Part shown: one piece after another, positions 2,747 through 55,999 of the stretch | Position numbering within the stretch: the stretch's first letter is position 1 | How the letters are laid out: every line of letters begins with the position of its first letter | The notes under the pieces: model-generated | Databases searched by the model: none | Told to the model about the DNA's origin: nothing | Seen by the model: only the letters and a program-made list of their open reading frames with translations | Made by a program: the position numbers and the translations under genes | Virus record (IMG/VR): IMGVR_UViG_3300049571_000258 | Span: 70,186-134,185 of that record | DNA: 64,000 bases | From: a virus | Taxonomy: Duplodnaviria; Heunggongvirae; Uroviricota; Caudoviricetes | Direction: 5' to 3' (one strand)

Positions 2747-5700
2747 GTGCCGACGAAGCGCGCACAGCGTCCGACGGGCGCCTCACGCATCATCGCCGCG
2801 TTCGGCCGGTACTACAAGCGGTCACGCGCAGGCGCGTCTCGGCGCGTCCTGGCGCTCCTGAGGCGCGAGCACCCTGAGCAGTCTCCCGCCGCCCTGCGAG
2901 CGCTGTTGGCGCGTGAGCAGGTCTACGAGGCGGAGTTCCAGCGCAAGATGACGGCGCGTCTGGAACGCGACATCCCGGGGATCCTGGCTCACGACGACCC
3001 GGATCACCGCAACCAGGCGATCGCTGACGTGCTCGCACGCGAGCGTCGGTTCGTCCAGATGCGCGAGCAGGCGATGGCCGAGCGCGCACTGGCCGCCGCC
3101 GAGATCGTGACCCTAGAGAAGATCTCGCCGCAGGGCGCGTTCTGGACGCTCTCGCCAGACGTCCAGAACCACACGCTGGACTGCCTGGCGATGGCCAACC
3201 AGTTCTGGCCCTACGAGGTGCTGCACAACATCCACCCACCACTGCACGTCGGGTGCCAGTGCCGCCTGATCCCGCTGCGCGACGCGATCGCACAGGGCCT
3301 CATGCGCGCCGACCAGATCCCCGACGCCCGCGACGCCGTCGTTCGTGCGCAGGCGGCTATCAAGGCGGCGCAGTCACTGGAGGAGGCCGACGCCAAGGCG
3401 CTGATCGAGGCGGCTTTCGATGATCGCCTGCATCCCCGCGGGCGTGACGGCCGGTTCATCCGCAAGTTCTCCAACCTGATCCACACGAAGCCTCCGGCGC
3501 AGAGCAACGGCGGGCGCTGGACGTGGGTCGCCGGGCATCGCGTCTTCGTGCCGGAGGGCCGCACCTTCCAGCGCACGTTCGGCGGGCGGACGTACGTCTC
3601 TCCGGCGCAGTCGACGAACATCTACGCCGACGGCAAGCTCGTGCCCCCCTCGCGACGCTTCGCCCCATTGACGATGCCGGACGGCAAGCTGGACACCGGC
3701 ACGATCGAGCGCATCCGCTCGGAGGTCGGCGACTTCGCCAAGCCTCCGACGTCGGAGCCGAAGCCGGGTGGTCAGCTGATCGACCACACGTGGGCGAACT
3801 GGGGCGAGTTCCAGCAGGAGACCAACGCGCTGTCGGCTGCACTGGGGCGCGAGTTCCACGTCGATGCGCAGCAGGGCAACGTCGACTTCGACACGAGGAT
3901 GTTCGACCACGCCGGGGCCACGGACTACAGCGGCAACACGACCTTCGGCCCCGACGTCTTCAACACGATCGAGAAGGAAGCGACGCGCCCGACCACGGGC
4001 CTGCCGCCGACCGATCAGGAGTTGGCCGACATCTACAACACGTACCGCGTGCAGGCGCACGAGGTCTCCCATCGAGTCAACTGGGCCAATCACCACGCGT
4101 ACTCGATGCCCGGCGGAGCGGTGCTAGAGGAGGCGCTGTCAGAGGAGGTCGCGCATGCGCTGCTGAAGGCCAACCTCCAGCGCCACGGTCGCGAGGACGT
4201 GTTGCGCTGGGGCGAGCAGCACCCGAACGCTGACGAGGTGCTGGGCACGTACCGCGCCTACCGGCTGGCCCTGAAGACGGCCCTGGACCAGATGGGCGTA
4301 CCGGAGCGCGACCGCATCCCGATCCTGTTCAAGTTGAAGTTCCAGACCGACCCGGAGGATCGTCTCAACGAGATGGTCCGCATCGGGCGCGGCTACCTCG
4401 GCGATGCGGCCCCCGACCTTGACGACCTGCGCGAGACCCTGGACCGCAGCGACTACGACGCGGCGAAGTACCGCTCGATCATTCCGGGCGACACGGGCCT
4501 ACCGGACCCCGGGACGCCGCTGACCGAGCGCTCGCTGGTCACCTCGATGCTCGACGGCGCGCAGCTGCTCTCGCGGCAGCACGCCAACGCGTCGGTCCAC
4601 TTCTCCGGCGTCGACTGGGCGTCACCGGAGATCGAGTACCCCTTCAACGCGCGCTACTTCCCCGGGCGCGGGCGCGTGGAGACCGGCGCGGGGATCTACC
4701 CGGCGATCAAGCGTGCATGGGAGGCCGACCACGGCGGCCCACCGCTGTCTGACGACGAGGCGCGCGATGGGTGGATGGCGCTGGCCAACCTCCAGCACGA
4801 GTTCCAGCATGCGGTCAACCCGACGCCCCAGCTTCAGTACGGCCAGGGTTGGAAGCGCGTCCTGGAGGAGGGCATCAACGAGGAGATCGCTCGGCAGGAG
4901 GCGGTTGCGACGGCGCGGCGCTTGGGCATGCACTCGGTCGTCGGCTGGGCGGAGCGCAACCGCGACGACTTCGCCGTGGCTGGCACCTACCAGTCCTACC
5001 GCCAGGCGGTGCGCCAGGTGCTGGAGGACGCCAAGGTGCCCAAGGAGAACTGGCGCGACCTGCTGTACCGGATGAAGTTCGAGATGACGCAGGACGAGCG
5101 CATGGCGCTGCTGCGCGATCACATGGCCAAGGCCAACGGCTGGGGGCCGGACTATGCGCGCGACCTGACGGCGCTGGCGCTCTCGCGCGGCGACCACCCG
5201 CGCGAACTCAAGATCGACGACTTCGAGCCGATGTTGGGCTGGCCGGAGTCGATCGTCCGGCCGCCGAAGCGCGTGGGTAAGGCCGACCCCGGCACGAAGC
5301 CGCTGGGCGGGAGGCTGACGCCGGAGACCGAGGAGACGTTGAGCAACCCGTCGTGGAGCTTCGAGATCGACCACACGCGCCGCAACGCCTACTACGGGGA
5401 CACGCACGTGCTGCGCGTCGCGCCGCGGTCGACGCCGGGCACGCGCCGCGTCGGCTCCGGCGACGTGTTCACCTACGACACGAAGGTGGCCGACGTCTCG
5501 ATCGAGGACGGTCGCCCGACTCCGGCCTTCAAGGGCGGCGACGGCTGGTCGCTGGATCTGCCCGACGAGCCGCAGCGGGGCATCGTGTTCCGGGGCATGT
5601 CCCACGGCGAGATGGAGACGCTGCGCAAGACCGGGCAGATCCACTCTCGCGGGCGCTTCAACCTCGGTGAGTCGCAGGTCGGTCTGACCTTCTACTCGAC

Positions 5701-6943
5701 GCAGCCCGACGAGGCCGTGGCCTACGCGGGCAACTACGCGCCGTGGCAGTTCCGCCCGACCTTCGATCGCCCAGCCTACCTGGTCGGTGTTCGTCGCCCT
5801 CCGGCGGAGCGCACCCGTCAGACACCCGGCTCGCCCTTCGAGGTCGGCGTGGAGGGCGCGATCCCCGCGTCCGACATCGTCTCGGTGACCGAGGTGCGCC
5901 CGTACGCGATCTCGGACGGCAGGGTGACCGCGGCGCCGGGCACCGAGTACGGGCTGGACACCTCCGACTACGTCATCGGCGGGGCCAAGGCGCCCCGCAC
6001 GTACCTGGCCTACCGGTCGCTGACGCCTTCCGACGTGCTGGAGGAGGCCTACCTAGAGTCCCAGCACCCGCGCTCGCGCACGGGCCAGTGGAAGCAGAAG
6101 AATCAGGGGCACCCGGCGAAGCCGCGCAGGCGCAAGAAGCGCACGGCGCCGAGGGGTCGAGACGGCGGCGCCATCACGCTGACGCCTTCGACGCCAGCCA
6201 CACCCAAGCTGCCGGAGGTCCACCTCCCATCGCTGGCGCCCGAGGTTGCGGCGATCGACGGGCCGGAGGCAATGGACGCCTATCTGGCGTCGTTGGGGAT
6301 CGAGGGCCGCATGTCGCCGACGGAGGGCATCTCGTGGGGTCCGTACTCCGCGGAGTGGTACCAGGAGATCGCACAGGCGGTGCACGACGCCGTTGCCGAG
6401 TTTCCGGTGCTGCGTGAGGGGCCTGTGCCCCTTGGGCTGATCTCGCTGCGCTCGAAGGCCGACGACATCTCGCTGTCGGACGTCTCGCGCGCGAAGGGCA
6501 TCTATGCGGTGACGACGTTCGCGCCCGCCCGCGGCCAGGTTGGCATCGTCTTCAACGACTTGACGGCCCAGTTGAACCAGAGGCACAGCGGGCAGGGCGT
6601 GAGTCCGGCGGGCGTGCTCGACTATGGCTTGGTGATGCACGAGCTTGGCCACGCGGTCGCGGACGCATCGGGCCTGTCGTGGGCGATGGGCAAGGAGGAT
6701 GTCAGCGCGTACGGCACGCGTCTGGCGTCGGCCCTCGATGCGGTGGGCCTGACACCGGATGTTGTCGGCCAGCTGTCGGAGTATGGTGCGACGTCGCCGG
6801 TGGAGGCGTGGGCCGAGATCTTCTCGACGTTGCACACGCCGGGCGCGATGGAGCGGGTGGAGGAGACGAATCCAACCCTCGCCGGGATGCTGCGTAGGCT
6901 TCAGGCAGAGCATGGCACCTACAACGGGTATCGAGTCCTGTGA
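2747..6943 (+). CDS. MuF-domain minor head protein with giant C-terminal extension ending in an HExxH zincin-like domain
   Basis: GTG start. N-terminal ~190 aa ends with the MuF signature ...HVGCQCRL. Carries a LHPRGRDGRF peptide. Internal RG...STQ...E stretch. C-terminus is HELGHAV...EAWAEIF (HExxH plus downstream Glu). Confidence 0.85.
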   Translation: MPTKRAQRPTGASRIIAAFGRYYKRSRAGASRRVLALLRREHPEQSPAALRALLAREQVYEAEFQRKMTARLERDIPGILAHDDPDHRNQAIADVLARERRFVQMREQAMAERALAAAEIVTLEKISPQGAFWTLSPDVQNHTLDCLAMANQFWPYEVLHNIHPPLHVGCQCRLIPLRDAIAQGLMRADQIPDARDAVVRAQAAIKAAQSLEEADAKALIEAAFDDRLHPRGRDGRFIRKFSNLIHTKPPAQSNGGRWTWVAGHRVFVPEGRTFQRTFGGRTYVSPAQSTNIYADGKLVPPSRRFAPLTMPDGKLDTGTIERIRSEVGDFAKPPTSEPKPGGQLIDHTWANWGEFQQETNALSAALGREFHVDAQQGNVDFDTRMFDHAGATDYSGNTTFGPDVFNTIEKEATRPTTGLPPTDQELADIYNTYRVQAHEVSHRVNWANHHAYSMPGGAVLEEALSEEVAHALLKANLQRHGREDVLRWGEQHPNADEVLGTYRAYRLALKTALDQMGVPERDRIPILFKLKFQTDPEDRLNEMVRIGRGYLGDAAPDLDDLRETLDRSDYDAAKYRSIIPGDTGLPDPGTPLTERSLVTSMLDGAQLLSRQHANASVHFSGVDWASPEIEYPFNARYFPGRGRVETGAGIYPAIKRAWEADHGGPPLSDDEARDGWMALANLQHEFQHAVNPTPQLQYGQGWKRVLEEGINEEIARQEAVATARRLGMHSVVGWAERNRDDFAVAGTYQSYRQAVRQVLEDAKVPKENWRDLLYRMKFEMTQDERMALLRDHMAKANGWGPDYARDLTALALSRGDHPRELKIDDFEPMLGWPESIVRPPKRVGKADPGTKPLGGRLTPETEETLSNPSWSFEIDHTRRNAYYGDTHVLRVAPRSTPGTRRVGSGDVFTYDTKVADVSIEDGRPTPAFKGGDGWSLDLPDEPQRGIVFRGMSHGEMETLRKTGQIHSRGRFNLGESQVGLTFYSTQPDEAVAYAGNYAPWQFRPTFDRPAYLVGVRRPPAERTRQTPGSPFEVGVEGAIPASDIVSVTEVRPYAISDGRVTAAPGTEYGLDTSDYVIGGAKAPRTYLAYRSLTPSDVLEEAYLESQHPRSRTGQWKQKNQGHPAKPRRRKKRTAPRGRDGGAITLTPSTPATPKLPEVHLPSLAPEVAAIDGPEAMDAYLASLGIEGRMSPTEGISWGPYSAEWYQEIAQAVHDAVAEFPVLREGPVPLGLISLRSKADDISLSDVSRAKGIYAVTTFAPARGQVGIVFNDLTAQLNQRHSGQGVSPAGVLDYGLVMHELGHAVADASGLSWAMGKEDVSAYGTRLASALDAVGLTPDVVGQLSEYGATSPVEAWAEIFSTLHTPGAMERVEETNPTLAGMLRRLQAEHGTYNGYRVL

Positions 6944-8178
6944 CGACGATCATTGACCCAGCCCTGATCGAACAGGCGAAGCGCGACGCGCGCGAGCGCG
7001 GGCAGACGGGGACGACCTGGGTGCCCGAGCCACTGCCGGGGGTACTCCAGGAGGCCTTCGTGGAGCGTCTGCACCCGCGCGATCGCCTGGGTCGCTGGAT
7101 CGACAAGCCGGGTGAGAAGCGGCCGACGCGGCTCATGTGGGATCTCGCCGCGTCGCTCGAAAAGACCTTCATGACGGGCAGGTTGAACACGGTGAGGGCG
7201 CGCAATGACGACGGCGAGATCGAGACGTTCGAGCACGTCTCGATTGACCCCCCGAGCGGCGCGGCGCTGGCCAAGGTTTGGGGTACCTACGTCAAGGACG
7301 GGCAGGTGCTGAAGACCGGCTGGGACATCGACGAGATCGTCGACCTGACGCCCGAGGAGTCCAAGTCCAAGAGGCCGTCCATCGCCGACATCAAGTTCTC
7401 GCCGGAGGTGCAGAAGATCGCGACCGCGGAGGACGCGAATCGCTATCTGCGTAAGCTGGGCCTGGAGGATGCCGACCTGCGTCCCGGGGATCGCGCCCTG
7501 TCTGACCCATCGCCGTCGTTTTACCGGGGGGTGGTGCAGGCGGTGGCAGACGTCGCCGAGAAGTTCCCGGCGCTCCTCAACGGCAGGTACACCAAGCTGG
7601 GCGGCGTCCGGCTGACGTCGCAGTTCCCGGAGGACAAGCTCGACTCGGGGATCGAGCAGGCGTGGGCGGTCACCGGCCCGCTGCCATCCGATCGCTGGCG
7701 CTGGGACATGGTCGACTACGACCTAGAGGCCGACGGGGAACCACCGCTGCCGCCCGAGGCGATGCAGTACGTCGTCATCAACGACACGGTCCAGACCCAG
7801 TACGGCTTCGACAACGACGACGTCGACATGGCGCGGGGTGCGTCTGGACTTGCGGTCGCCGACCGCACGGTCTATGGGCGCACGGTGCACGAGCTTGGTC
7901 ATGCGCTCGCCTGGGCGTCGGGCCAGGACCCGGAGAACTCAGATGACGAGGCTTGGGGTGGGACGGAGCAGGCTCTCAACGAGGCGCGAGTCCCGATGAG
8001 CGGCATGGCGAAGATCTCCGGCTATGGCACCTCGAATGTGGTCGAGGCGTGGGCCGAGATCTTCACGACGCTCCACACGCCCGGTGCCTACGATTGGGTG
8101 GTGGAGCACGCGCCGGAAACCAAGAAGCCGCTGGACCGCCTGCGCGGGCACAAGTACAAGGGCCAGGTGATCATGTGA
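6940..8178 (+). CDS. HPRDR-motif / HExxH zincin-like protein, paralog 2
   Basis: ERLHPRDRLGRWIDKPG near the N-terminus; C-terminal HELGHALAW...VEAWAEIFTTLHTPGA is alignable to the C-terminus of 2747..6943. Confidence 0.8.
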   Translation: MTTIIDPALIEQAKRDARERGQTGTTWVPEPLPGVLQEAFVERLHPRDRLGRWIDKPGEKRPTRLMWDLAASLEKTFMTGRLNTVRARNDDGEIETFEHVSIDPPSGAALAKVWGTYVKDGQVLKTGWDIDEIVDLTPEESKSKRPSIADIKFSPEVQKIATAEDANRYLRKLGLEDADLRPGDRALSDPSPSFYRGVVQAVADVAEKFPALLNGRYTKLGGVRLTSQFPEDKLDSGIEQAWAVTGPLPSDRWRWDMVDYDLEADGEPPLPPEAMQYVVINDTVQTQYGFDNDDVDMARGASGLAVADRTVYGRTVHELGHALAWASGQDPENSDDEAWGGTEQALNEARVPMSGMAKISGYGTSNVVEAWAEIFTTLHTPGAYDWVVEHAPETKKPLDRLRGHKYKGQVIM

Positions 8179-9230
8179 CCCTGCCGATCAGCGAGGAGCA
8201 GCTGGCGCGTGCGCTGGAGCAGGCGCGCGAGAACGTCGCGCGCGGGTCGTTCCCGAAGGTCAAGAAGTCGCAGCTGCGCGAGTCCTTCGCCGAGCGCCTA
8301 CATCCGCGCGATCGGCTGGGCCGGTTCATCGACAAGCCGAACTTCGATCGCTACGAGACGATCGGCGACATGCTGGCGAAGACCGACTGGCACCAGTACA
8401 TGCCGACGAAGTTCGACCCCGACGTGGAGGCGATCAACTCGCCCGAAGACGCGACAAGGTTCCTTCAGGGTCTCGGCTTCCAGAAGTCCAGCATGACGCC
8501 GCCGGAGGGCTACGACACCCCGTCGGCGCACTGGTATCGCGAGGTCGCACAGGCGGTCAAGGACGCGTCGACGAAGTTCCCGGCGCTCAAGAACGGGGAG
8601 CATCCCCTGGCGGGTGTTGTGATCTTCGACCCCGACCTGATTGATCCTGACGAGTTCGACGACGACGCGCGCGGGGGTGTGTGGGCGTTCACGGGCAGCG
8701 ATCCAGCGGAAGGCCACGTCACCGTGGATAGGGTGAGGGATGGCACATCGGGCCTGTTCGTCGGAATCAACCCGGACGGCGAACCCTATAAGCGGGAGAT
8801 GGACGTCTCCAGCTTCGCGGCCCCGGCGGGCGGTTCGATCTACGGGCGCATGATGCACGAGATGGGCCACGCCGTCTCGCAGGCAAACGGCTTCTCGTTC
8901 GACGAGAAGATCATGCCTCAGGTCTTCAACGGGGTGCCCGAGTTTCGTGAGGGGTACGCCAACATCCTGCGCGACTACGAGTTCAGCCTCACCGACCCGG
9001 AGATCGCAATGTTCACGCTGGCCGACATCCGCCCGTCGGAGTTGGCGGCGGTGTCGAACTACTCGCAGAAGAACCCGGCCGAGGCGTTCGCGGAACTCTT
9101 CACGACCATGAACACGCCACACGGTGCCGACTTCCTCGACCCATCCCTACGCGACCACCTCTTCAAGGCGCGGGACGCGATCAATGCCGCCTGGGAGCGT
9201 CTGCGGCCCGGCAAGGGGGATCTGCTGTGA
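8175..9230 (+). CDS. HPRDR-motif / HExxH zincin-like protein, paralog 3
   Basis: GTG at 8175 in an ATGTGA overlap; ERLHPRDRLGRFIDKPN; C-terminal HEMGHAVSQ...AEAFAELFTTMNTP. Confidence 0.8.
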   Translation: MTLPISEEQLARALEQARENVARGSFPKVKKSQLRESFAERLHPRDRLGRFIDKPNFDRYETIGDMLAKTDWHQYMPTKFDPDVEAINSPEDATRFLQGLGFQKSSMTPPEGYDTPSAHWYREVAQAVKDASTKFPALKNGEHPLAGVVIFDPDLIDPDEFDDDARGGVWAFTGSDPAEGHVTVDRVRDGTSGLFVGINPDGEPYKREMDVSSFAAPAGGSIYGRMMHEMGHAVSQANGFSFDEKIMPQVFNGVPEFREGYANILRDYEFSLTDPEIAMFTLADIRPSELAAVSNYSQKNPAEAFAELFTTMNTPHGADFLDPSLRDHLFKARDAINAAWERLRPGKGDLL

Positions 9231-10294
9231 CCTGGTACAAGCCGAAGACCCCGTTCGAGGTCGCGCCCGATTGGATGTCGTTCCGCGGCAAGACGAAGCG
9301 CCTGCCCGACTTCCCTCATCTCGAAGATGTCCAGGAGGCCTTCGTCGAGCGCCTGCATCCCCGCAATCGTCTCGGCCGGTTCGTCGACAAGCCCGACGTG
9401 CTGGACGTGACCGCGACGCAGTCGACCGGCGCGGCGCACGGGGACCTCACCTTCAAGTACGACGACGACATCGCGAAGATCCACGACGCCAGCACCGCCT
9501 TTCGCGCGCTGATCGACATGGGTCTACCAGCGTCCGACCTGCGCCTCCCCGACGAGGTCGCCCGCGACCGGGGTGAGTCGAGCGACTACTACTGGCCCGC
9601 GCAGCAGCCCGACCCGGACTGGTATCGCCAGATCGTCCAGGCGGTGCGCGATGCGCAGCGCAGGTACCCCGTCCTCAAGGACGGCCCGCGGCCCTTCCGG
9701 GGCGTCATCGTGGCGCAGCCAGAGGACCCGGGTATGGAGACTTTCCGGCGGGCTGGCGATACCACCTGGGCGGTGACCGGACCCGATCCGCACGCCAACG
9801 AGATCGTGGGCTTCGGCCGGGCGGATCGCAACAAGCACGATCCGATCTACGTCACGATCAACCCCGGCGCCGTCGCGCTCGACGCGGCCATGGGCGGCGC
9901 GGGCGACCTGATGCCATCGTCGCGCACGTCGATCTACGGCCGCATGATGCACGAACTCGGACACGCCGTCTCGCAGTCGTCGGGGTTTCTGCTCGGCGAA
10001 GCCGATGGCGAATGGGGCGGTCCGCTGAAGGGGCGTGTCCCCTTCCAGTGGGGCATGCCCGAGATCGAGATGCTGAGCCACACCGACCTCACGCTCGACG
10101 ACGTCGCAGCGATGTCGAAGTATGGCGCCTCGAACGTCGCCGAGGCGTGGGCCGAGACCTTCTCGATGCTCAACACGCCGGGCGCGATGGAGCGCGTCAC
10201 CGACCCGACGATCAAGCAGCACATGCTCGACGCACGCGATACGATCAACAGGCTATGGCAGACAAGGCACCCAGGAACCGGCCCCCTGATGTGA
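9227..10294 (+). CDS. HPRDR-motif / HExxH zincin-like protein, paralog 4
   Basis: GTG in a GTGA overlap; ERLHPRNRLGRFVDKPD; C-terminal HELGHAVSQ...AEAWAETFSMLNTPGAMERV. Confidence 0.8.
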   Translation: MTWYKPKTPFEVAPDWMSFRGKTKRLPDFPHLEDVQEAFVERLHPRNRLGRFVDKPDVLDVTATQSTGAAHGDLTFKYDDDIAKIHDASTAFRALIDMGLPASDLRLPDEVARDRGESSDYYWPAQQPDPDWYRQIVQAVRDAQRRYPVLKDGPRPFRGVIVAQPEDPGMETFRRAGDTTWAVTGPDPHANEIVGFGRADRNKHDPIYVTINPGAVALDAAMGGAGDLMPSSRTSIYGRMMHELGHAVSQSSGFLLGEADGEWGGPLKGRVPFQWGMPEIEMLSHTDLTLDDVAAMSKYGASNVAEAWAETFSMLNTPGAMERVTDPTIKQHMLDARDTINRLWQTRHPGTGPLM

Positions 10295-10419
10295 TCCCCG
10301 CGTGGCCCGAGCGGGCGCGCGAGAACATCGAGCGCGGCGAGTGGGTTCCGTACGAGGGCGAGATCTGGCCGCCCGAGGCCGACCCCCGCACCGAGAAGAC
10401 CGACAAGCCTTCCCTGTAG
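10291..10419 (+). CDS. small hypothetical protein (42 aa)
   Basis: GTG in an ATGTGA overlap; good GC3; no recognisable motif. Confidence 0.3.
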   Translation: MIPAWPERARENIERGEWVPYEGEIWPPEADPRTEKTDKPSL

Positions 10420-10520
10420 GCCGCCGGTCTGCTACGCTGCGCGTCGTGTTCCTCCGAGAGCGAAATCCCGAGTCGGAAGCCAAGTAGGCGCGGCTAGTCG
10501 CCGCTGCCCGCTTTCGATCG

Positions 10521-10593
10521 GGGGACGTAGCTCAGAGGCCAGAGCAGGACTCTCTTAAAGTCACGCGCGTGGGTTCGACTCCCACCGTCCCCA
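10521..10593 (+). tRNA. tRNA-Lys: tRNA-Lys (CTT)
   Basis: Hand-folded cloverleaf: acceptor ggggacg/cgtcccc, D gctc/gagc, anticodon loop ctCTTaa, T-arm gtggg-ttcgact-cccac. Confidence 0.7.
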
Positions 10594-10607
10594 CCTCGTA
10601 GTACCCC

Positions 10608-10679
10608 GGCGCGTTCGACTAATCGGTAGGTCACCAGGCCCTCACCCTGGAAGCGCAGGTTCAAGTCCTGTACGCGTCA
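10608..10679 (+). tRNA. tRNA-Glu: tRNA, probably Glu (CTC); anticodon loop has C at position 33
   Basis: Acceptor ggcgcgt/acgcgtc (one GU), anticodon stem ccagg/cctgg, loop ccCTCac, T-arm gcagg-ttcaagt-cctgt. Confidence 0.5.
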
Positions 10680-10752
10680 TGGCCAGTAGCTCAGTCGGCA
10701 GAGCCATCGCCTGTTAAGCGAGGGGTCGCAGGTTCGAGTCCTGCCTGGCCAG
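10680..10752 (+). tRNA. tRNA-Asn: tRNA-Asn (GTT)
   Basis: Acceptor tggccag/ctggcca, D gctc/gagc, loop ctGTTaa, T-arm gcagg-ttcgagt-cctgc. Confidence 0.65.
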
Positions 10753-10802
10753 TCGCAGTACGTACCCTCCTAGCGTCCATCTACGCCTGGAGGGTTCTTC
10801 CC

Positions 10803-11114
10803 ATGGCACTCACATCGGTCGGAACGGCGCTCGCTGCGTCGAACCGCAACTCGCAGGTCGAGGTGCGCGCAGCTGTCAAGGAGCTTCAGGGCCTCAAGCA
10901 GGCCGTCGTCTCCGGCGCCGCGGCGAACACGAACATCGCGATCACCGGCATCTCCACCGCCGACAAGCTCGTCGGCGTCATCGAGGTCCCGGCGGCCACG
11001 ACCACTCTCGTCGACCGCACGTCGGTCGCGTCGATCACCTCGGCTGGCAACATCCAGCTGACGCAGTCGACGTCGGGCAACCAGCTGCTCGTGACGTACT
11101 TCGACGTCGCCTAG
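10803..11114 (+). CDS. hypothetical protein (103 aa, Ala/Thr/Ser-rich)
   Basis: ORF track; SD ggaggg upstream; followed by a GC hairpin. Confidence 0.55.
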   Translation: MALTSVGTALAASNRNSQVEVRAAVKELQGLKQAVVSGAAANTNIAITGISTADKLVGVIEVPAATTTLVDRTSVASITSAGNIQLTQSTSGNQLLVTYFDVA

Positions 11115-11121
11115 TGCACAA

Positions 11122-11149
11122 GCGGGCGGATCCTGTGCGGTCCGCCCGC
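11122..11149. terminator. GC-rich hairpin, likely terminator
   Basis: gcgggcgga / tccgcccgc 9-bp perfect stem directly after the stop of 10803..11114; weak U tail, as usual at high GC. Confidence 0.45.
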
Positions 11150-11174
11150 AAAGTGCGATGTTCCGTCGTCCGGT

Positions 11175-12371
11175 ATGTCTGCCAGTCTGTGCGACGTGGA
11201 CCTCACGGATGCAGACATCATCCAGACGGTCAGGCGCCACCGGGGGCAGATCCAGCCTGCCGCTCGTGCGCTCGGAATCGCTCCGTCCACACTACGCAGC
11301 CGGATCAACAACCGACCTGACGTGGTCGCGGCCATCGAGGCGATCCGTGCGGAGCACGGCTTCGGCGGCACGCCCACCGCGGCTCCCCTTGAGCCGACCG
11401 GCGCGCAGCAGGACGCGGACGAGTTCCATCACCGTCTGCACACACTCCTGAAGAAGCGCGGCGGCACGGTCGAGGAGATCGCCGACGCGCTCGACGTCGC
11501 GCCACGGCGCGTGCGGGAGGGCATCGAGCAGCTACAGCACAGGGGCTTCCGTGTCGGCAGCCCCACCGGCAACGACGAGCAGATCGTTCTGCATCGCGTC
11601 GCGCCGGACAAGCTAAACCTGCACAAGTCGCTGCTGGACGGCGACCATCTGCGGATCGGCGTCGTCTCCGACACGCACCTCGGCTCCAACGAGGAGGCGC
11701 TGGGCGAGCTTCACCTCGCCTACGACCGCTTCCAGGAGGAGGGGATCACCGAGGTCTATCACGCGGGCGACTTCGTCTGCGGCCTCGGGATCTTCCCGAC
11801 GCAGGGGTCCGAGATCCACGAGCACACCTTCGAGGACCAGGTCGAGTACCTGGTCGAGAACTACCCCAAGCGCGACGGCATCATCACACGCGGGATCTCC
11901 GGCAACCACGACATCGAGGGCCAGTTCGGGCGCATCGGTGCCGACCCGGTCGCCGCGGCTGCGCACCGGCGCGACGACATCGACTACCTGGGCGCGTACT
12001 CGGCCTGGGTGGAGCTTCCCAACGGGGCGTGGATGCATCTGCTCCACGGCAAGGGCGGGATGTCCTACGCGTATAGTTACAAAGCTCAGAAGCTAGTGGA
12101 CGGCTACCCGTCGGGCCGCAAGCCCGCGATCCTGTGCGTCGGCCACTGGCACGTGTCGGGCCACATCGAGGCGCGCGGCGTGCAGGTCATCTGGCCGGGG
12201 GCGTTCGAGTGGAAGTCGAAGTTCATGGAGCGCCTGGGCCTCTCGCCCTCGGTGGGCTTCCAGATCCTGGACATCGCTCTGGGCGAGGACGGGTCCCTGG
12301 TGCAGTTCACCCGCAACTGGTTCAGGTTCTGGGAGGGCCGAACCGTCGTCTCCACCCCCGATGCCTCATAA
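11175..12371 (+). CDS. N-terminal HTH fused to a calcineurin-like metallophosphoesterase
   Basis: N-terminus ALGIAPSTLRSRI (Fis-type HTH); phosphoesterase motifs DTHLG, GDFV, GNHD, GHWH. Confidence 0.7.
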   Translation: MSASLCDVDLTDADIIQTVRRHRGQIQPAARALGIAPSTLRSRINNRPDVVAAIEAIRAEHGFGGTPTAAPLEPTGAQQDADEFHHRLHTLLKKRGGTVEEIADALDVAPRRVREGIEQLQHRGFRVGSPTGNDEQIVLHRVAPDKLNLHKSLLDGDHLRIGVVSDTHLGSNEEALGELHLAYDRFQEEGITEVYHAGDFVCGLGIFPTQGSEIHEHTFEDQVEYLVENYPKRDGIITRGISGNHDIEGQFGRIGADPVAAAAHRRDDIDYLGAYSAWVELPNGAWMHLLHGKGGMSYAYSYKAQKLVDGYPSGRKPAILCVGHWHVSGHIEARGVQVIWPGAFEWKSKFMERLGLSPSVGFQILDIALGEDGSLVQFTRNWFRFWEGRTVVSTPDAS

Positions 12372-46602: not shown

Positions 46603-46609
46603 TCTCGCG

Positions 46610-46683
46610 AGCGCGGTGGAGCAGTCCGGTAGCTCGTCTGGCTCATAACCAGAAGGTCGCGGGTTCGAATCCCGCTCGCGCCA
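46610..46683 (+). tRNA. tRNA-Met: tRNA with CAT anticodon (Met; initiator-like 1:72 mismatch, or Ile2)
   Basis: Closely resembles E. coli tRNA-fMet (tggagcag.c.ggtagctcgtc.ggctcataacc.gaaggtcg.gggttcaaatcc); A1/C72 unpaired; only 2 GC pairs at anticodon stem 29-31. Confidence 0.65.
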
Positions 46684-46830
46684 CCTCTCATGCAGAAGCG
46701 ACCCGACACCTCGGCCGTCCTGACGGCTGCGCGACGACCGCGCAGGCGACGGCCAGTTGTGCTCTAGGGTCGCTCCCACCTCACGGGAGCCATCCCCGCC
46801 GTCGACCGTAGGGTCCATGGGCGGGCGCTC

Positions 46831-46902
46831 CCGGGTGTAGCTCAATGGCAGAGCGCGTGGTTTGGGACCACGAGGCCGCAGGATCGGTACCTGCCTCCCG
46901 GA
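46831..46902 (+). tRNA. tRNA-Pro: tRNA-Pro (TGG), non-canonical T-loop
   Basis: D gctc/gagc, anticodon stem cgtgg/ccacg, loop ttTGGga, T-arm gcagg-atcggta-cctgc; one T-T mismatch in the acceptor. Confidence 0.55.
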
Positions 46903-46909
46903 CTGACTT

Positions 46910-47116
46910 GCCCTCTCCGCGGGATTGCGGCTCCGGGTCTACGAAGCCTGGCAGGGTGGTTCGACTCCATCAGGGGGTACTCCCTCATCGGCGGTCCGAC
47001 GCCGGGTGTCCGAAGCCTGGACGGGCGGTTCAACTCCGCCTGGGGGCATGCCCTGCGGATGGATCCCGGCTGGCCTCCTAAGCTGGCAACGCGTCGTTCG
47101 ACTCGGCGGCGGGGTA
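46910..47116 (+). repeat. three tandem ~68-70 nt tRNA-like units, each with a T-arm and acceptor-like closing stem but no canonical D/anticodon arms
   Basis: R1 46910-46979, R2 46981-47048, R3 47050-47116. Each carries a stem-TTCGACT/TTCAACT-stem T-arm followed by a 7-nt 3' strand complementary to its own 5' end, and shares ..cgaagcctgg.. in the middle. Confidence 0.4.
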
Positions 47117-50020: not shown

Positions 50021-53000
50021 ATGCCTGGGGCCTCCATTCGCCTACGCCACGACGCGGGTGCCACCGGCACGGGGCTTGTCGTCGCCGAAGGCCTCCTCCT
50101 CACGCTCACCGACCCGCGCTCGAAGAAGCAGCACATCACTCGCGCGGCCGACACGGCACGCCAGCTGCTGAGTCTCGACGAAGCAGACACGACGAAGGTC
50201 GCGCGCGCCCTGGCGGAGCACATCGAGAAGATCCGCCCGGCGGTCCAGGAGGCGGCCACGATGCCGTCGATCTCGGTCAAGAAGGGCGGGGGCCAGGTCG
50301 GCGCCGCAACCGGCGCACAGGGCGCGCAGGTGCGCATGGAGACCAAGTCGAAGGCCAAGCCGAAGACGCGCGGTGGCGTGGCGGGCGAGGTCGGCGCGAA
50401 GGGCGCGCCAGCGGCCAGCAACCCCAACTTCGAGAAGCTGCACCCACGCGATCGCACCGGCCGGTGGGTCAAGGCGGGCGACGGCTACGATCAGCCCAAC
50501 CCGACGGTCTCGCAGCTTCAGCGTCGCCTGGCGCAGCTGGGCTACGGTCCCGGCGCGCCGGACGGCAAGTTCGGCCCGTTGACACAGCAGGCGCTCGCCA
50601 AGTTCCAGGCCGACTACGGCCTCCAGGGCGACGGTTCGCACGTCGACCCCGCTACGCTCCAGGTGCTCCAGAACCCTCCGGCGCAGAAGCTGCGCCAGAT
50701 CCAGGCCGAGCAGCAGGCGCTGGCCAACGTGCCGGACGCCAACGGCAAGGTGGCTGGCGCCACCGGCGGATCTACTGGCGGTACGGGTAGCAGCACTAGC
50801 GCGGGTGCCAGCGGGTCGGCCACGACGACGCTGGATACCACCGATCCCGAGGCGGTCAAGAAGTTCCAGCAGGCGCACGGCCTGAAGCCGGACGGCGTCG
50901 TCGGCCCCAACACCGAGGCACTGATGAAGGGGCTTGGCGTCCACCCCAAGGGCGACTACGTCAACCCGGACGGCACGGTGACGAGCGTCGATCACGCGGC
51001 CGAGGAGAGGGACAATGCGAAGAAGGACTCCTCCAAGTCGTCGTCCTCCTCGTCGGGCACTGGCAGCGCCAGCGGCAGCGCGAGCGGGGCGGCGTCGAAG
51101 GGCGCGAACTCCGAGACGCTGGCGCCGGGTGACGGGCTGAAGGAGCCGAGCGCCGACGTCAAGGCGCTTCAGCAGGTGCTCGACGCGCTGGGCTATGACC
51201 TGGGTGAGAGCGGCATCGACGGCCGCTACGGCAGCGATACCGAGAAGGCGATCCGCAAGCTCCAGAAGCGCTACGGCCTGAAGGTCGACGGTGTTGCCGG
51301 ACCGCGCACGATGCGCCTGCTCAAGCGGCTGGGCGAGCAGGCCAAGAAGAAGGCCAAGGACGACGACATCAAGTCGGGTGACGAGGTCACCGAGGCGCAG
51401 ATCGTCGCGGCGGTCGAGAAGCGCAAGCTGGCCGAGGCCGCGGGCGACGTGGACGCGTTCATTGCGGCGCGCGCCGCGGAGGTTCACCTGCGCGAGAACT
51501 TCATCGAGCGCCTGCATCCACGTGACCGACTGGGCAAGTTCGCGGACGTGCCGGGTGGCTCGAAGGGTTCCTCGTTCAAGTACGGCCCCGGCGACCGGGT
51601 CGTCATCGAGCCTGCGACGAGGCACTACGGCGACCGGGTGCACCCTGGTCGGGTCCACGATCGCTACGTCGACAAGTTCGGCGGGCGCTGGTACACGGTC
51701 GCGACCGGCAACGGCAACGAGGATGTGCTGGAGGATCAGCTGCGCAGGCCTTCCGAGCGCGAGGGTGTGAAGATGGACCCGGGCACGGGGTCGAAGCCGA
51801 AGAAGTCGCGCATCATCCTCACCGACGAGGATCGCGCGTTCCCCGAGACGGCGATGTGGCCCGAGGCGATCGCCGAGCGTCGCCGGGCGCAGGGCAAGCG
51901 GAGGTTCGGCATGAGGTCTGTTCTGGATCGGCTCACCGAGGCGGCAGAGATCCGTGAGTCCGCGACGCCGGGCACGCCCGAGCACATCGAGGCGCGTGCC
52001 CGTGAGGTCGAACTGGCTCGCCAGGTCATGGAGGAGGGCGTGCTGAACGCCGCGGCGCGCAAGGCGTCGGCGACGGTCGTGCGCCAGAAGGGCGGCAAGA
52101 CCGAGTACAAGTTCCCGATCCCCGACAAGGCGCACGCGAAGGCGGCGCTGGCCTACCTGAACTCCAGCGACCTGACGCCCGAGGAGAAGGCGAAGGTGCG
52201 CGCGCGGGCGATGGCGGTGCTGGCCGAGGCGCGGCGCGCCGAGCGCGAGGCGGAGATGGTCGCGGCGCTCGACGAGGCCGAGGTGCTGATGATCGCCGAG
52301 GCGGTGGACTCCCTGCGCAAGGCGTCCACGCACAAGCACGGGCTGGAGTCCAAGAAGGGGCCGAACGACAACTGGATCGAGCGCTCCAGCGCCGACGGGC
52401 GTGGCCAGCTGCCCGCCTACATTCAGCACATCGCACTGGCGCTCGTGCGCAAGCGCGGGATGCCGAAGTCACGCGCGATCGCCATCGCGATCGGCACGGT
52501 CAAGCGCTGGGCGCGCGGTGGCGGCGACGTGGACGCCAACACGCGTGCGGCGGCGGCCAAGGCGGTCGCCGAGTGGGAGGCGCTGAAGGCCAAGAACAAG
52601 GCCAAGAAGGTCACCGAGGCGTGGGACTCCGACTTGATCGACACGGTGTTCGAGTGCGGCCTGATGGAGGCCGACACGAAGGCCGACTACGACGACATGA
52701 CCTGCACGGCGCACGGGCGCAAGAAGTGCAAGTCCTGCCTGATGGAGGCGGTGTTCGAGGATCGCCTGCACCCGCGCAACCGCTTCGGTCGGTTCATCCA
52801 CAGCTTCGGCGGGCGCCGCAACGGCGGCGGTGCTATGGATGGGTTCGTGCACAACGGCAAGCGGGAGCGGATCGACAGCCGCATCGGCGACGGCGGGTCC
52901 TTCGAGGCGCGTACGCGGCGCACGCAGCGCTACGCCGAGCACATGGCTCGCGTGCCCGAGACGCCGCAGGAGCGGGGCCAGCGCGAGGCGGATGAGCGCT

Positions 53001-53503
53001 ATCAGGCCGCGCTGCTGGGCAAGCGCGACCCCGGCACAGCGTCGCCGCAGGCGGTGCAGCGAGTCGCCTACAGCGCCTTCACCGGCGAACCAGCCGAACG
53101 TCGAGCGTCCTTCGATGCGATGGACCTGATGACCAACGATCAGCTGAACACGCTCGACGACACGAACCTCATCACGATCCACACGGCCACCCTGCCCGGC
53201 GGGGAGCGCGGCGCCTATTCGTCGCTGCACAGCCGCGTGGCGCAGATCCTCAAGGGTCGCGACAGCGATCAGGCCTCGCGCTACATGCGTGGGCTGAACA
53301 TCTTCGAGTCGTTGACCGACGCGGCGCTGGCGTTGCGCGAGTCCTGGACGCCGACGTTCGAGGCGCGCCCGTACGTGGACGCGCTGGCCGAGGGCGTGAC
53401 CGACGCTGTGATCGTGCGCGCGCTGCTGAGCGCGATGGGGCAGGCGAGCGGCCCCGACGTCGCGAAGGTCCGCCGCACGCTGCGCGCCCACCTGGAGGGC
53501 TAG
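50021..53503 (+). CDS. very large (1160 aa) protein with three peptidoglycan-binding (PG_binding_1-like) repeats and three HPRDR peptide motifs
   Basis: PG-binding repeats LQRRLAQLGYGPGAPDGKFGPLTQQALAKFQ, VKKFQQAHGLKPDGVVGPNTEALMKGLG and LQKRYGLKVDGVAGPRTMRLLKRLG; motifs FEKLHPRDRTGRW, FIERLHPRDRLGKF and FEDRLHPRNRFGRF; Ser/Gly-rich linkers. N-terminal start uncertain. Confidence 0.65.
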   Translation: MPGASIRLRHDAGATGTGLVVAEGLLLTLTDPRSKKQHITRAADTARQLLSLDEADTTKVARALAEHIEKIRPAVQEAATMPSISVKKGGGQVGAATGAQGAQVRMETKSKAKPKTRGGVAGEVGAKGAPAASNPNFEKLHPRDRTGRWVKAGDGYDQPNPTVSQLQRRLAQLGYGPGAPDGKFGPLTQQALAKFQADYGLQGDGSHVDPATLQVLQNPPAQKLRQIQAEQQALANVPDANGKVAGATGGSTGGTGSSTSAGASGSATTTLDTTDPEAVKKFQQAHGLKPDGVVGPNTEALMKGLGVHPKGDYVNPDGTVTSVDHAAEERDNAKKDSSKSSSSSSGTGSASGSASGAASKGANSETLAPGDGLKEPSADVKALQQVLDALGYDLGESGIDGRYGSDTEKAIRKLQKRYGLKVDGVAGPRTMRLLKRLGEQAKKKAKDDDIKSGDEVTEAQIVAAVEKRKLAEAAGDVDAFIAARAAEVHLRENFIERLHPRDRLGKFADVPGGSKGSSFKYGPGDRVVIEPATRHYGDRVHPGRVHDRYVDKFGGRWYTVATGNGNEDVLEDQLRRPSEREGVKMDPGTGSKPKKSRIILTDEDRAFPETAMWPEAIAERRRAQGKRRFGMRSVLDRLTEAAEIRESATPGTPEHIEARAREVELARQVMEEGVLNAAARKASATVVRQKGGKTEYKFPIPDKAHAKAALAYLNSSDLTPEEKAKVRARAMAVLAEARRAEREAEMVAALDEAEVLMIAEAVDSLRKASTHKHGLESKKGPNDNWIERSSADGRGQLPAYIQHIALALVRKRGMPKSRAIAIAIGTVKRWARGGGDVDANTRAAAAKAVAEWEALKAKNKAKKVTEAWDSDLIDTVFECGLMEADTKADYDDMTCTAHGRKKCKSCLMEAVFEDRLHPRNRFGRFIHSFGGRRNGGGAMDGFVHNGKRERIDSRIGDGGSFEARTRRTQRYAEHMARVPETPQERGQREADERYQAALLGKRDPGTASPQAVQRVAYSAFTGEPAERRASFDAMDLMTNDQLNTLDDTNLITIHTATLPGGERGAYSSLHSRVAQILKGRDSDQASRYMRGLNIFESLTDAALALRESWTPTFEARPYVDALAEGVTDAVIVRALLSAMGQASGPDVAKVRRTLRAHLEG

Positions 53504-55999
53504 GTGTCGCTGGAGGGGATGGCAGCCGGGCGCCGCATGGCCGCGGCGCTGATCTTGCAGGAGGCCAAGGGAGCCATCCCCGAGGGCTACTTTGTCACGC
53601 GCCTGGTGGACGCTGGCGCCACCGAGGAGCAGGCGCAGGAGATCGCCGACAAGTTCATCGAGATCGGCAAGGTCATCCCCGACAAGAAGTTCAACAAGGT
53701 GGCCAAGAAGATCACCGAGAAGGACCGCGACGCGCAGCACTTCATCAACATCGAGGAGGGGGTCATCGCCGACTTCCTCGCGCCCGGCGCGCTGGCTGTC
53801 CACGCCAACATGAAGGCCTACAAGGAGTGGGAGCCAGACAAGCACCCTCGCGATCGAGAGGGCAAGTTCCTCAAGGTGCTCAAGTCGCTCGACGTCGGCC
53901 AGGCCGAGACCCATGAGGGCGTGACGATCACGCGCAACTCGCGCAAGGAGTTCCACCTCAGCGGCGGCGTCGACCGCGGTGAGCGGACGATCGTCGGGCA
54001 CCGGGCCGCCGCGCGCGACGCGGCCGAGCGCGCGGAAGTGGCGGCCAAGGCGAAGGCCAGCGGCGTCAAGATGGATCCTGGCACCTTCCCGAAGGAGGAG
54101 GGGAAGTCGACGCACTTCTCGCGCGCAAAGGCGATGGCCTACACCGTGGGCGTCCCCGGGTTCGTCGCCTGGGATCACGACGAGGTCGATACGTGGTTCC
54201 CCTTCAACGGCTACGGCGACACACACGGCGTGCTGTGGGCGCCGGTGACCGACAAGATCGAGCACGCGTCTGTCGACCTGGCCACGACGCTGATCTCGCA
54301 GCTGCACCTGATCCCTCAGGTGGCCGAGTCGCTGCTGCATCTCATCGCCGCGCGCGAGGACCGGCGTGCGGCGCAGCTGGCCAACGACCCTGACGCGCTG
54401 GTACGTGCACACGCACTAGAGACCGCCCTGATCTCGCATCTGCGCGCCGCCGGACTGCACGACGACACGCTGCGCGAGGCGGTCAGCTACGCGGAGGCAC
54501 TGCACCCGCGTGACCGCAACGGCAAGTGGATCCGCAAGCTAACCGGCGGGAACTCCAAGGGTCTGCGCGCGCTGCCTCAGGGCAAGCGCGTCCAGGTGCC
54601 CGGCACGCACGTCAACGTGACGCGCGTCGGGCGCGACGAGTACGACATCGCCGACTCGCGGTCGGGGCGCGGCAAGCGCCGGATCCAGGGCCACGAGCAC
54701 GCGGCCAACGAGATCCACGAGCGTGCCCGCACGAGCGACGTCGCCAAGCGCGACCCGGGCATCGACAGCGACGCCTACGAGAAGGGCTTCACCCCGAAGG
54801 AGACACACGAGCGCACGCGCTGGTTCAGGCGCAAGGAGCGCAACGAGGCGGCCGAGAGGTTCGAGGAGGTGCTGCCTGGCCACGTCGCGGACGCCATCGG
54901 CTACAGCGCCCTGAAGGTGTCCAGCGAGACACCCGGCCTCAACAAGCTGGGCAAGCCTGCCTACAACGCCTACGAGTGGATCATCAACGGTGGCAAGATC
55001 CCCGACGAGCACGCCACGGCTGCGACTGGGCACGCGTCGCAGCACATCACGTCGGCGGCCGACCACCTAGCCGCCGCGGCGCCGCAACTTGATGATCGGG
55101 TGGCGCACGCCGCGATCAGTGTCGCTGACACCCTCGTGAACTTCATCTCCAGTGGTGGTGGCGACGTCGCACAGGCGCTGATCCACCTGATTGCGTCGCG
55201 CTGGGATGGGGCGCGGGCCGCACGCATCGAGGCCGAGCGCACCGGCGACACGACGGCATGGGCGCGCGCTCGCGCGATCGAGGAGGCGGCGCTGGCGCAG
55301 CTGCTGGAGGTCAAGTACGACCCGCGCAAGCACCCGCGCGACCGGAACGGCAAGTGGATCGACACGCCGGACATCACGCACGCGATCAAGGCGATGATCT
55401 CCGGCGAGTTCCACGGCGACGACCCGAGGCCCCAGACGCCGACGAAGCTGGGCGTCACGCCGTACTACAAGACGAACGACCCCAACTACCCGCAGCGCAC
55501 GTACGCGTCGGCCAAGGCGCTGTTCAACGAGCCGGACTGGCGCAAGACGTTCCGCGAGTTCGAGCGTGACGTCCACCGGCTGGCCAAGGAGCACAACGTC
55601 GAGGTCGTGCACAGCGAGCGCGGCGTGGGCGTGTTCGAGGGCGAGTTCGAGCCGAGCTACAGCATCGACGTCACGGGCGACCCGAAGGACATCTCGGCCT
55701 ACAACACGGCGCTGGGCAAGAAGTGGAAGCAGGACGCCGTGGTGTCCTTCAAGCGCGACAAGCGAGGCAAGGACACCGAGGTGCACGTGCCGGTGAAGAA
55801 TCCGGAGGCGTTCCTGGCGGCGCTGCGCAAGCGCTCCAAGGGCGAGGTCGGCGCGACCTTCGAGGACGGGATGGCGCGCGTGTTCGTGTACGCCTCCGAC
55901 GCGGCGGGCATCAAGGCGGTGGCCAAGGCGGCGGAGGACGTCGGCGCGAAGGCGCGCGCGTTCCGCGGCACCGGTGAGTACATCGAGACGAAGGCCTAG
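53504..55999 (+). CDS. large (831 aa) hypothetical protein with three HPRDR peptide motifs
   Basis: GTG after TAG; DKHPRDREGKF, EALHPRDRNGKW and RKHPRDRNGKW; otherwise no recognisable domain. Confidence 0.6.
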   Translation: MSLEGMAAGRRMAAALILQEAKGAIPEGYFVTRLVDAGATEEQAQEIADKFIEIGKVIPDKKFNKVAKKITEKDRDAQHFINIEEGVIADFLAPGALAVHANMKAYKEWEPDKHPRDREGKFLKVLKSLDVGQAETHEGVTITRNSRKEFHLSGGVDRGERTIVGHRAAARDAAERAEVAAKAKASGVKMDPGTFPKEEGKSTHFSRAKAMAYTVGVPGFVAWDHDEVDTWFPFNGYGDTHGVLWAPVTDKIEHASVDLATTLISQLHLIPQVAESLLHLIAAREDRRAAQLANDPDALVRAHALETALISHLRAAGLHDDTLREAVSYAEALHPRDRNGKWIRKLTGGNSKGLRALPQGKRVQVPGTHVNVTRVGRDEYDIADSRSGRGKRRIQGHEHAANEIHERARTSDVAKRDPGIDSDAYEKGFTPKETHERTRWFRRKERNEAAERFEEVLPGHVADAIGYSALKVSSETPGLNKLGKPAYNAYEWIINGGKIPDEHATAATGHASQHITSAADHLAAAAPQLDDRVAHAAISVADTLVNFISSGGGDVAQALIHLIASRWDGARAARIEAERTGDTTAWARARAIEEAALAQLLEVKYDPRKHPRDRNGKWIDTPDITHAIKAMISGEFHGDDPRPQTPTKLGVTPYYKTNDPNYPQRTYASAKALFNEPDWRKTFREFERDVHRLAKEHNVEVVHSERGVGVFEGEFEPSYSIDVTGDPKDISAYNTALGKKWKQDAVVSFKRDKRGKDTEVHVPVKNPEAFLAALRKRSKGEVGATFEDGMARVFVYASDAAGIKAVAKAAEDVGAKARAFRGTGEYIETKA

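Follow-up and report, generated by a model that had tools for sequence, protein, structure and literature searches.

A recurrent peptide motif in the polyvalent proteins of tailed phages, a possible leader for loading and release of their modules

Why should one short, strictly conserved peptide recur in a set of large phage proteins of very different make-up? The question is raised by a stretch of 64,000 nucleotides (nt) from a virus of the class Caudoviricetes (IMG/VR record IMGVR_UViG_3300049571_000258, positions 70,186–134,185), hereafter called the window, which is part of a tailed-phage genome of 68% G+C content (GC) with every gene on the + strand, and for which a near-identity search among 50,697 sequenced phages gave no close relative. 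The initial annotation of this DNA had noticed a peptide built around His-Pro-Arg in 11 copies distributed over seven proteins, and had proposed a shared targeting, docking or processing signal of co-delivered proteins. The reading that we favour, with a probability of roughly 45%, is that the motif serves as a per-module leader of phage-type polyvalent proteins, which holds each module in the assembling head and also marks the site of its release.

By a six-frame regular-expression search of the window, HPRxRxG[RKQ][FW] was matched 12 times, always on the + strand and always inside one of seven long open reading frames (ORFs), here named A to G (His codons at nt 3431, 6065, 7072, 8301, 9356, 40639, 50441, 51515, 52769, 53843, 54503 and 55331). 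Residue shuffles of the seven carrier proteins (n = 2000) gave no motif match, and a DNA pattern of the motif had nine real matches in the window versus none in 100 dinucleotide shuffles. A family profile composed of 448 motif copies, almost all from other organisms, detected exactly 12 sites at 20.7–40.4 bits when applied to all frames, far above the next best site at 3.6 bits, indicating that no hidden copies exist in the portal protein or elsewhere in the window. The 11 positions first reported were right to within a few bases and the seven proteins were right as well, but a twelfth copy had been overlooked: the giant protein A, credited with one copy, has a second and more degenerate one at amino acid (aa) 1107 (nt 6065). 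The single copy in the P-loop protein E and the three copies each in F (1160 aa) and G (831 aa) were confirmed by the same search. The consensus first given has to be relaxed: counted from the His, the first aromatic residue may be Tyr, Glu at −3 is Pro in two copies, and Leu at −1 is Lys or Gln in three. The 12 copies, with their scores against the family profile, are as follows.

3416–3457, + strand: copy 1, protein A aa 224–237, FDDRLHPRGRDGRF, directly after the MuF-like N-terminal domain; 34.6 bits
6050–6091, + strand: copy 2, protein A aa 1102–1115, YLESQHPRSRTGQW, the most degenerate, ahead of the C-terminal zincin module of A; 20.7 bits
7057–7098, + strand: copy 3, protein B aa 40–53, FVERLHPRDRLGRW; 40.4 bits, the best in the window
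8286–8327, + strand: copy 4, protein C aa 38–51 (corrected start), FAERLHPRDRLGRF; 35.2 bits
9341–9382, + strand: copy 5, protein D aa 39–52, FVERLHPRNRLGRF, within the low-confidence N-terminal tail of the AlphaFold2 (AF2) model; 33.0 bits
40624–40665, + strand: copy 6, protein E aa 122–135, WDEALHPRGRGGQF, between the N-terminal domain and the Zeta-toxin domain; 38.8 bits
50426–50467, + strand: copy 7, protein F aa 136–149, NFEKLHPRDRTGRW, at the end of a disordered linker (81–135) and just before the first peptidoglycan (PG)-binding domain; 22.3 bits
51500–51541, + strand: copy 8, protein F aa 494–507, FIERLHPRDRLGKF, at the start of a low-confidence linker (493–610); 33.4 bits
52754–52795, + strand: copy 9, protein F aa 912–925, FEDRLHPRNRFGRF, within a low-confidence linker (869–961); 27.2 bits
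53828–53869, + strand: copy 10, protein G aa 109–122, WEPDKHPRDREGKF; 25.2 bits
54488–54529, + strand: copy 11, protein G aa 329–342, YAEALHPRDRNGKW; 34.0 bits
55316–55357, + strand: copy 12, protein G aa 605–618, YDPRKHPRDRNGKW; 36.6 bits

The invariant residues of the motif are encoded by varied synonymous codons (Pro by all four) and the nucleotide identity among the window copies averages 0.69, showing that selection acts on the peptide and that the copies are not a DNA repeat; this synonymous variation was also the ground for rejecting a recombination site at the DNA level. Motif positions are kept in homologs of the carriers, as the initial annotation would have it: that of the His at aa 229 of A in 13 of 20 homologs, those at aa 141 and 499 of F each in 5 of 6 non-self homologs, and that at aa 127 of E in the single homolog compared (P0147). 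The second copy of A is kept in 2 of 2 homologous blocks, and the position at aa 917 of F in only 1 of 5 non-self homologs. Among zincin homologs that are just 27–35% identical, the motif residues are as strongly conserved as the catalytic ones.

Relatives of the motif were sought by back-translated DNA patterns and exhaustive HMMER searches, a word-index search being blind to so short a motif. The DNA pattern retrieved 40 loci from viral contigs, about 38 of which also had an aromatic residue at −5 though the pattern did not demand one. Applied to 596 Gb of bacterial and archaeal genomes, it gave 60 matches, about 52 of them chance matches in junk frames and 8 genuine ones, which were giant ORFs in Actinomycetota. 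This first pattern took only CGN codons for Arg and was hence biased; a restriction of the motif to Actinomycetota or high-GC phages is ruled out by genuine copies at 39–40% GC (loci L103 and L105) and in a Pseudomonas phage, found with an AGR-codon pattern, the profile search and tblastn. The latter, Orisa03, is a cultured phage of Pseudomonas syringae and has one genuine copy. In a search of 1.84 billion representative proteins, the profile matched 627 clusters at E ≤ 0.001 and 113 at E ≤ 1e-10, and the family consensus reads [FWY]-[DE]-E-x-x-H-P-R-[DG]-x-x-G-[RKQ]-[FW]-x-x-x-G-G, of which the window copies, with their fixed second Arg, represent a sub-variant. At least two copies occur in 135 of the 149 top carriers and up to 16 in some, two tandem prophage giants of 5313 and 7334 aa having about 16 each. 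The motif thus belongs to a widespread family, and no genuine copy turned up in ordinary cellular proteins, an outcome that agrees with the initial annotation.

No Pfam, NCBIfam or PHROG model covers the motif, either in the proteins of the window or in the 67 further carriers scanned, and no PDB chain matched either motif profile at E ≤ 10. Searches of open-access literature text found no description of it, and the full texts of Iyer et al. 2017 and Jamet et al. 2017 make no mention of it. A probable variant, FTEGKHKRDLRGRF, in which Lys replaces the invariant Pro, was seen at aa 877–890 of the 1030 residues of Gordonia phage Tangerine gp17 (locus L110, 5421–8513; only 4.8 bits), a protein of a cultured phage, called a capsid maturation protease in some annotations and an RNA ligase in others.

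The surroundings of the motif are also regular. Upstream it is flanked by helix-like sequence rich in Ala, Glu and Leu; downstream, Gly and Ser abound (Gly 14% versus 9%) and hydrophobic residues are few. In the AF2 models of D and F, all four copies covered are placed inside long low-confidence linkers or at their borders. Locally they look alike, with a short helix leading into a loop of 7 residues held by a beta-bridge, and confidence rises slightly there. Of 586 copies, 82 are within 60 aa of the N-terminus and 2 within 60 aa of the C-terminus, and the distance from the last copy to the protein end has a median of 336 aa, indicating that the tag always stands ahead of a domain. Since N-terminal and internal copies are equally conserved (30.7 versus 30.1 bits, p = 0.65), both positions are functional. 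The same comparison disposes of the idea that internal copies are decaying relics of fused genes, which had been prompted by the scores in the window, where the copy at aa 1107 of A is the worst and that of the stand-alone protein B the best. Copies at aa 8–30 of stand-alone proteins argue that the motif is more than a domain separator, and 16 copies in one chain that it is more than an address tag. A DNA-binding hook was judged unlikely, the family consensus being approximately charge-neutral. The tag can evidently be lost from an internal fused module, as P0002, a fragment of an A-like fused protein, has a degenerate KRKSPGDPGVRIMD at the place of the motif (alignment columns about 214–227).

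What kind of protein carries the motif? The carriers of the window and the portal gene beside which four of them are encoded are listed here.

657–2729, + strand: portal protein gene, without the motif; context of the carriers
2747–6943, + strand: protein A, 1398 aa, polyvalent protein immediately after the portal, with MuF-like domain, motifs and zincin signatures
6940–8178, + strand: protein B, 412 aa, N-terminal motif and zincin HELGH (nt 7888–7902), from sequence signatures
8175–9230, + strand: protein C, 351 aa (corrected start), N-terminal motif and zincin HEMGH (nt 8856–8870), from sequence signatures
9227–10294, + strand: protein D, 355 aa, N-terminal motif and zincin HELGH (nt 9950–9964), from sequence signatures; AF2 core aa 78–355 confident
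40261–41814, + strand: protein E, 517 aa, N-terminal domain, motif and Zeta-toxin P-loop kinase domain (aa 266–436, nt 41056–41568), amid replication genes and distant from the portal
50021–53503, + strand: protein F, 1160 aa, three motifs, three PG_binding_1 repeats (about aa 160–435) and helical domains without assigned function, from domain scans
53504–55999, + strand: protein G, 831 aa, three motifs between four segments, without recognisable domain

Several of these are large and composite. Protein A has, in this order, the MuF-like N-terminal domain (aa 11–225, nt 2777–3421), a motif, HEVSH (nt 4058–4072), HEFQH (nt 4796–4810), a second motif and HELGH (nt 6638–6652), i.e. three zincin signatures; F has three PG-binding repeats and more, and E an N-terminal domain joined to a Zeta toxin (PF06414, E = 9.3e-25, 87.7 bits at a gathering cutoff of 22.3). 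The third zincin of A, at its C-terminus, is a paralog of B, C and D, so the description of the carriers as otherwise unrelated holds for E, F and G and fails for B, C, D and the C-terminus of A. That B, C and D are zincin paralogs was borne out by their alignment, in which HExGH and a downstream EAWAE are invariant, and by a weak match to the fold of anthrax lethal factor: the best PDB folds for the AF2 model of D were anthrax lethal factor and Pro-Pro endopeptidases (E 0.02, probability 0.8–0.9), in line with the placement of polyvalent-protein metallopeptidases by Iyer et al. 2017.

The label MuF given to A fared less clearly. Protein A itself has no Pfam match to Phage_Mu_F (PF04233) even at E ≤ 5, whereas that family appeared below threshold in 3 of 11 N-terminal domains homologous to that of A (best E 0.0067) and at 5e-6 in one full-length relative, and is the sole family recurring among these domains. 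We take the Cys/His signature of the domain to resemble that of MuF, and the position after the portal is consistent with the label as well.

Across the 67 other carriers scanned, Pfam domains comprised ART-PolyVal, ADPrib_exo_Tox, Zeta toxin, CCA/polyA nucleotidyltransferases, HD, NUDIX, GNAT and HicA, and further RelA/SpoT, InPase, 2H phosphoesterase, PG-binding, LPD1, Portal_Mu and Phage_Mu_F; zincins are also part of the repertoire, and none of the 67 had a conjugation domain. By these domains the carriers are phage-type polyvalent effector proteins, a class predicted to be packaged and injected. Their genes often adjoin, or are fused to, head genes of the portal, MuF-like or head-protease type, as with A–D, which lie directly downstream of the portal, and with loci L003 and L010 (portal, portal/protease-like gene, carrier), L103 (terminase, portal, carrier), L104 and L034. 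Locus L104 (NCBI GCA_040384245.1, JAWVHA010000049.1, locus positions 1–32005, on a 409-kb contig) contains the two tandem giants of 5313 and 7334 aa, each with several ART-PolyVal/ADP-ribosyltransferase (ART) domains, followed by a Zeta-toxin gene and then a Phage_cap_E capsid gene.

Fusions and fissions place the motif precisely at the junction between anchor and cargo. In Orisa03 gp4, a portal (aa 85–517) and an ExoS/Vip2-type ART (aa 537–685) are separated by 20 residues, essentially all of which are filled by the single motif copy (aa 522–535), and locus L002 has the same order of portal, motif and ART. Because a toxin tethered to the portal can reach the host only if it is released, this junction should be the release point. 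Protein A and about 20 relatives join MuF-like domain, motif and cargo in a single chain; locus L034 has the MuF-like domain in a gene of its own, and the cargo there still has the motif at aa 29. A MuF-like domain as the universal partner of the motif was not supported, the MuF-like profile matching 3 of 42 motif loci, although these loci are short and MuF is divergent.

These observations can be combined as follows. Each cargo unit would consist of a short Ala/Glu/Leu-rich helix, the motif, a flexible Gly/Ser-rich linker and a folded domain. Some conserved part of the head under assembly would bind the leader and so keep each module inside the procapsid, and the leader would also be the junction at which the module leaves its anchor, be it the portal, a MuF-like domain or a neighbouring module. 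For the window, the anchor may be protein A, with its MuF-like domain and its gene beside the portal, and B, C, D, E, F and G would be clients in trans; for the cutting step, the zincins of A–D are obvious candidates. The shared signal first proposed is partly supported, namely by the carrier repertoire, the head-gene context and the location of the motif in linkers ahead of modules, and the leader reading builds on the observed multiplicity, breadth, polarity and conservation of the motif. An address tag would account for the N-terminal copies and for carriers encoded far from the head genes (E, F and G); it is insufficient alone, since 16 equally conserved copies occur in one chain and others in portal-fused proteins. 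A bolder extension, which we consider doubtful, is that this is a portable loading and release signal of about 20 residues used across tailed phages of very different bacteria, being either bound by a conserved head component, e.g. the portal, or self-cutting.

Several points weigh against the leader reading. Packaging of the carriers, docking, cleavage and the identities of receptor and protease are all things that we infer from sequence. Proteins E, F and G are encoded at 40–56 kb amid replication and other genes, far from the head genes, and their location in the virion is an assumption. Carriers co-occur with several portal families (Portal_Mu, phrog_10963, phrog_776 and phrog_2662), so a strictly conserved motif fits a fast-evolving structural partner poorly. 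Head-anchored or polyvalent effectors without the motif exist in cultured phages (Pag-Yong1, F116 p60, Tunturi_5 gp225, Jess A gp39, McProf gp54 and RP180 gp4), and therefore the motif marks a subset and is not needed for packaging in general. In fusions to a portal or to MuF a targeting function is redundant, and AF2 placed no motif on the zincin domain of D, with a shallow alignment of 10 sequences.

The abundance of zincins invites a simpler account, in which the motif is purely the cleavage site of the co-encoded lethal-factor-like zincin metallopeptidases (MPTases), which would cut polyproteins into enzymes with no docking involved. HExxH is 7-fold enriched in carriers (84 observed versus 12 expected) and lies typically a median of 174 aa downstream of the motif, every zincin of the window has a motif 185–272 aa ahead of it, and the unrelated 39% GC phage of locus L105 repeats this design with a motif-led stand-alone zincin and a multi-motif giant; moreover, the motif lies in exposed linkers, and Iyer et al. 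2017 predicted processing by MPTases, giving no site. We nevertheless regard this account as unlikely, given that none of the annotated genes in the complete genome of Orisa03, which has a genuine copy, encodes HExxH, that only 57 of the 149 top carriers (38%) have HExxH, and that at loci whose carrier has just one copy, at the N-terminus, zincins are no commoner within about 5 kb than at control loci. Furthermore, the copies at aa 8–30 of stand-alone proteins, where there is nothing to separate, are conserved like internal ones, and a strictly conserved footprint of 14–20 residues is long for a cleavage site. As a general mechanism, a universal zincin cleavage site is ruled out by Orisa03 together with the lack of enrichment near single-N-terminal-copy carriers. 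If no dedicated protease is needed, the motif could be a self-cleaving linker that frees the downstream module, perhaps triggered in the filled head: it is the sole conserved element common to contexts with a zincin, with a serine-type head protease and with no recognisable protease, it spans nearly the whole portal–toxin junction of Orisa03, and its invariant E-x-x-H, Pro, Arg and Gly are consistent with a chemically active or metal-binding site. However, we know of no autoproteolytic motif that resembles it, a peptide of about 20 residues without folded context is a poor candidate for a catalyst, the motif is in no solved structure, and the copies at aa 8–30 would free only a tiny peptide, all of which makes self-cleavage very unlikely.

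Alternatively the motif may act after injection in the host, as a leader for passage through the portal or tail channel, as an aid to refolding, or as a dock for a universal host component. It is kept across hosts (Pseudomonas and Actinomycetota, with locus GC from 39% to 74%), suggesting that its partner is one that bacteria at large, or all tailed phages, have in common, and its N-to-C polarity fits threading N-terminus first; yet a host hub might predict genuine copies in cellular proteins, where they were not found, and a portal-fused toxin needs cleavage in order to leave, whatever the leader does. We judge such a role improbable. Least credible, to the point of being nearly dismissed, is a passive linker or junction spread with shuffled domain cassettes, or its DNA-level counterpart, the recombination site. 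The carriers are indeed highly mosaic, with modules recurring in varied orders, and the copy of the fused paralog P0002 is degenerate, but it is the peptide that is conserved while its synonymous codons vary freely, AGR codons for Arg encode the same peptide in the 40% GC contig L103, the motif residues are as invariant as catalytic ones where homologs have diverged to 27–35% identity, and polarity and position are strictly kept, unlike those of neutral linkers.

How does the proposed leader compare with known systems? The capsid-targeting sequence (CTS) of phage T4 is also a site of proteolytic maturation and is removed by the head protease. As a leader it directs the encapsidation of the T4 internal proteins (IPI–III and Alt) (PMC3012670). 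The motif is similar to it in being short, N-terminal to cargo and common to unrelated, fast-diversifying and putatively injected effectors that include an ART; it differs in that the CTS is found in T-even phages only, once per protein and at the extreme N-terminus, whereas the motif is cross-host, occurs also internally and repeated up to 16 times, and has a function predicted from sequence. To our knowledge the two have no resemblance in sequence, and their likeness is one of analogy, not of membership. Leaders or processing signals of packaged phage proteins are a known kind of signal, and it is the conserved, repeated and cross-lineage form that appears to be new.

For DarB of phage P1, a polyvalent protein of 250 kDa, the first 30 residues suffice to send a reporter into the capsid, and no consensus shared among the P1 Dar proteins was found (PMC9024508). 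In many carriers here, of 700–2400 aa, the motif likewise falls among the first 30 residues; unlike the Dar leaders, it is a strict consensus across many proteins and phages. MARTX toxins and viral polyproteins are giant chains of effector domains joined by flexible linkers, with built-in proteases that cut between them; in MARTX toxins a cysteine protease does the cutting, at a minimal Leu-X site. By comparison the motif is about 20 residues long, is found also at the N-terminus of single-domain proteins, and does not always accompany a zincin, as Orisa03 illustrates.

Polyvalent proteins and their lethal-factor-like zincin MPTases, predicted to be processed and injected, were described by Iyer, Burroughs, Anand, de Souza and Aravind 2017, and the carriers are of that class in their domains (ART-PolyVal, InPase, 2H, RelA/SpoT, NUDIX, MuF or portal fusions and zincins). 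That study named no inter-domain signature or cleavage site, the string 'HPR' is not in the paper, and the motif is found in only a subset of the class, all phage-type as far as sampled. Jamet et al. 2017 described MuF polymorphic toxins, in which a head-anchoring MuF domain is fused to variable C-terminal toxins (ART, RelA-like or metallopeptidase). The fusion of a head-anchoring domain to variable C-terminal cargo recurs here; no linker motif was given in that work, and the MuF–ART proteins McProf gp54 and RP180 gp4 are without ours.

The polyvalent proteins of phages rank with the largest proteins of any virus and with those least understood. A tag ahead of every module, in hundreds of protein families of unrelated phages, makes it a matter of direct experiment how they enter the head, whether and where they are cut, and how their many enzymes are set free in the host. 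The tag is also a marker for annotation, since it flags candidate injected effectors, including ones like E, F and G whose genes are distant from the head block, as well as module boundaries in giant ORFs. If it suffices for loading, it would be a general handle for placing foreign proteins in phage particles, and were the broader proposal of a portable signal true, the organisation, packaging and dismantling of giant polyvalent proteins would be accounted for and the tag could serve to load arbitrary proteins into diverse phage capsids for delivery.

Some details of the carriers and their neighbourhood remain to be described. Gene C starts at 8175 and not at 7953, as given by an identical 351-aa database protein from JGI metagenomes; from this start its motif lies at aa 43, in register with those of B (45) and D (44). 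Read from 7953, as in its longest ORF, gene C would share 225 nt with gene B (7953–8178). One metagenome contig that encodes an identical protein C is about 134 kb long, which makes the phage genome no less than double the window in length. A homolog search found no homologs of protein G; its last module (aa 619–831, nt 55358–55999) had a weak, sub-threshold match to S-adenosylmethionine lyase (E = 0.006) and, if this match is real, may be an anti-restriction effector of the T3 SAMase kind.

Downstream of the portal and A–D block (10300–16900) we recognised neither a major capsid protein nor a scaffold nor a prohead protease of the conventional type, and the three stand-alone zincins occupy the usual place of a head protease or scaffold. 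There are 20 tRNA genes, all on the + strand, 13 at 10521–16871 and 7 at 46037–46980; the first cluster begins right after the zincin gene D and breaks the usual block of head genes. Within the same region, ORF 11175–12371 (398 aa) had a weak PHROG match to a family called 'DNA repair exonuclease', and ORF 12361–12777 is similar to an HNH endonuclease from locus L104. The ORF at 16969–18735 (588 aa), which follows the first tRNA cluster directly, matches phrog_850, 'RNA-binding protein' (E = 6e-75), and may be an RNA repair or quality-control factor tied to the tRNA set. Just upstream of the second cluster lies ORF 44773–45699 (308 aa), with a strong match to the transposase family phrog_4285 (E = 2.8e-73), which may be an insertion sequence within the phage genome. 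Finally, ORF 24698–25483 (261 aa) looks like a fusion of a nucleoside 2-deoxyribosyltransferase-like N-terminal half and a MazG/dNTP pyrophosphohydrolase-like C-terminal half.

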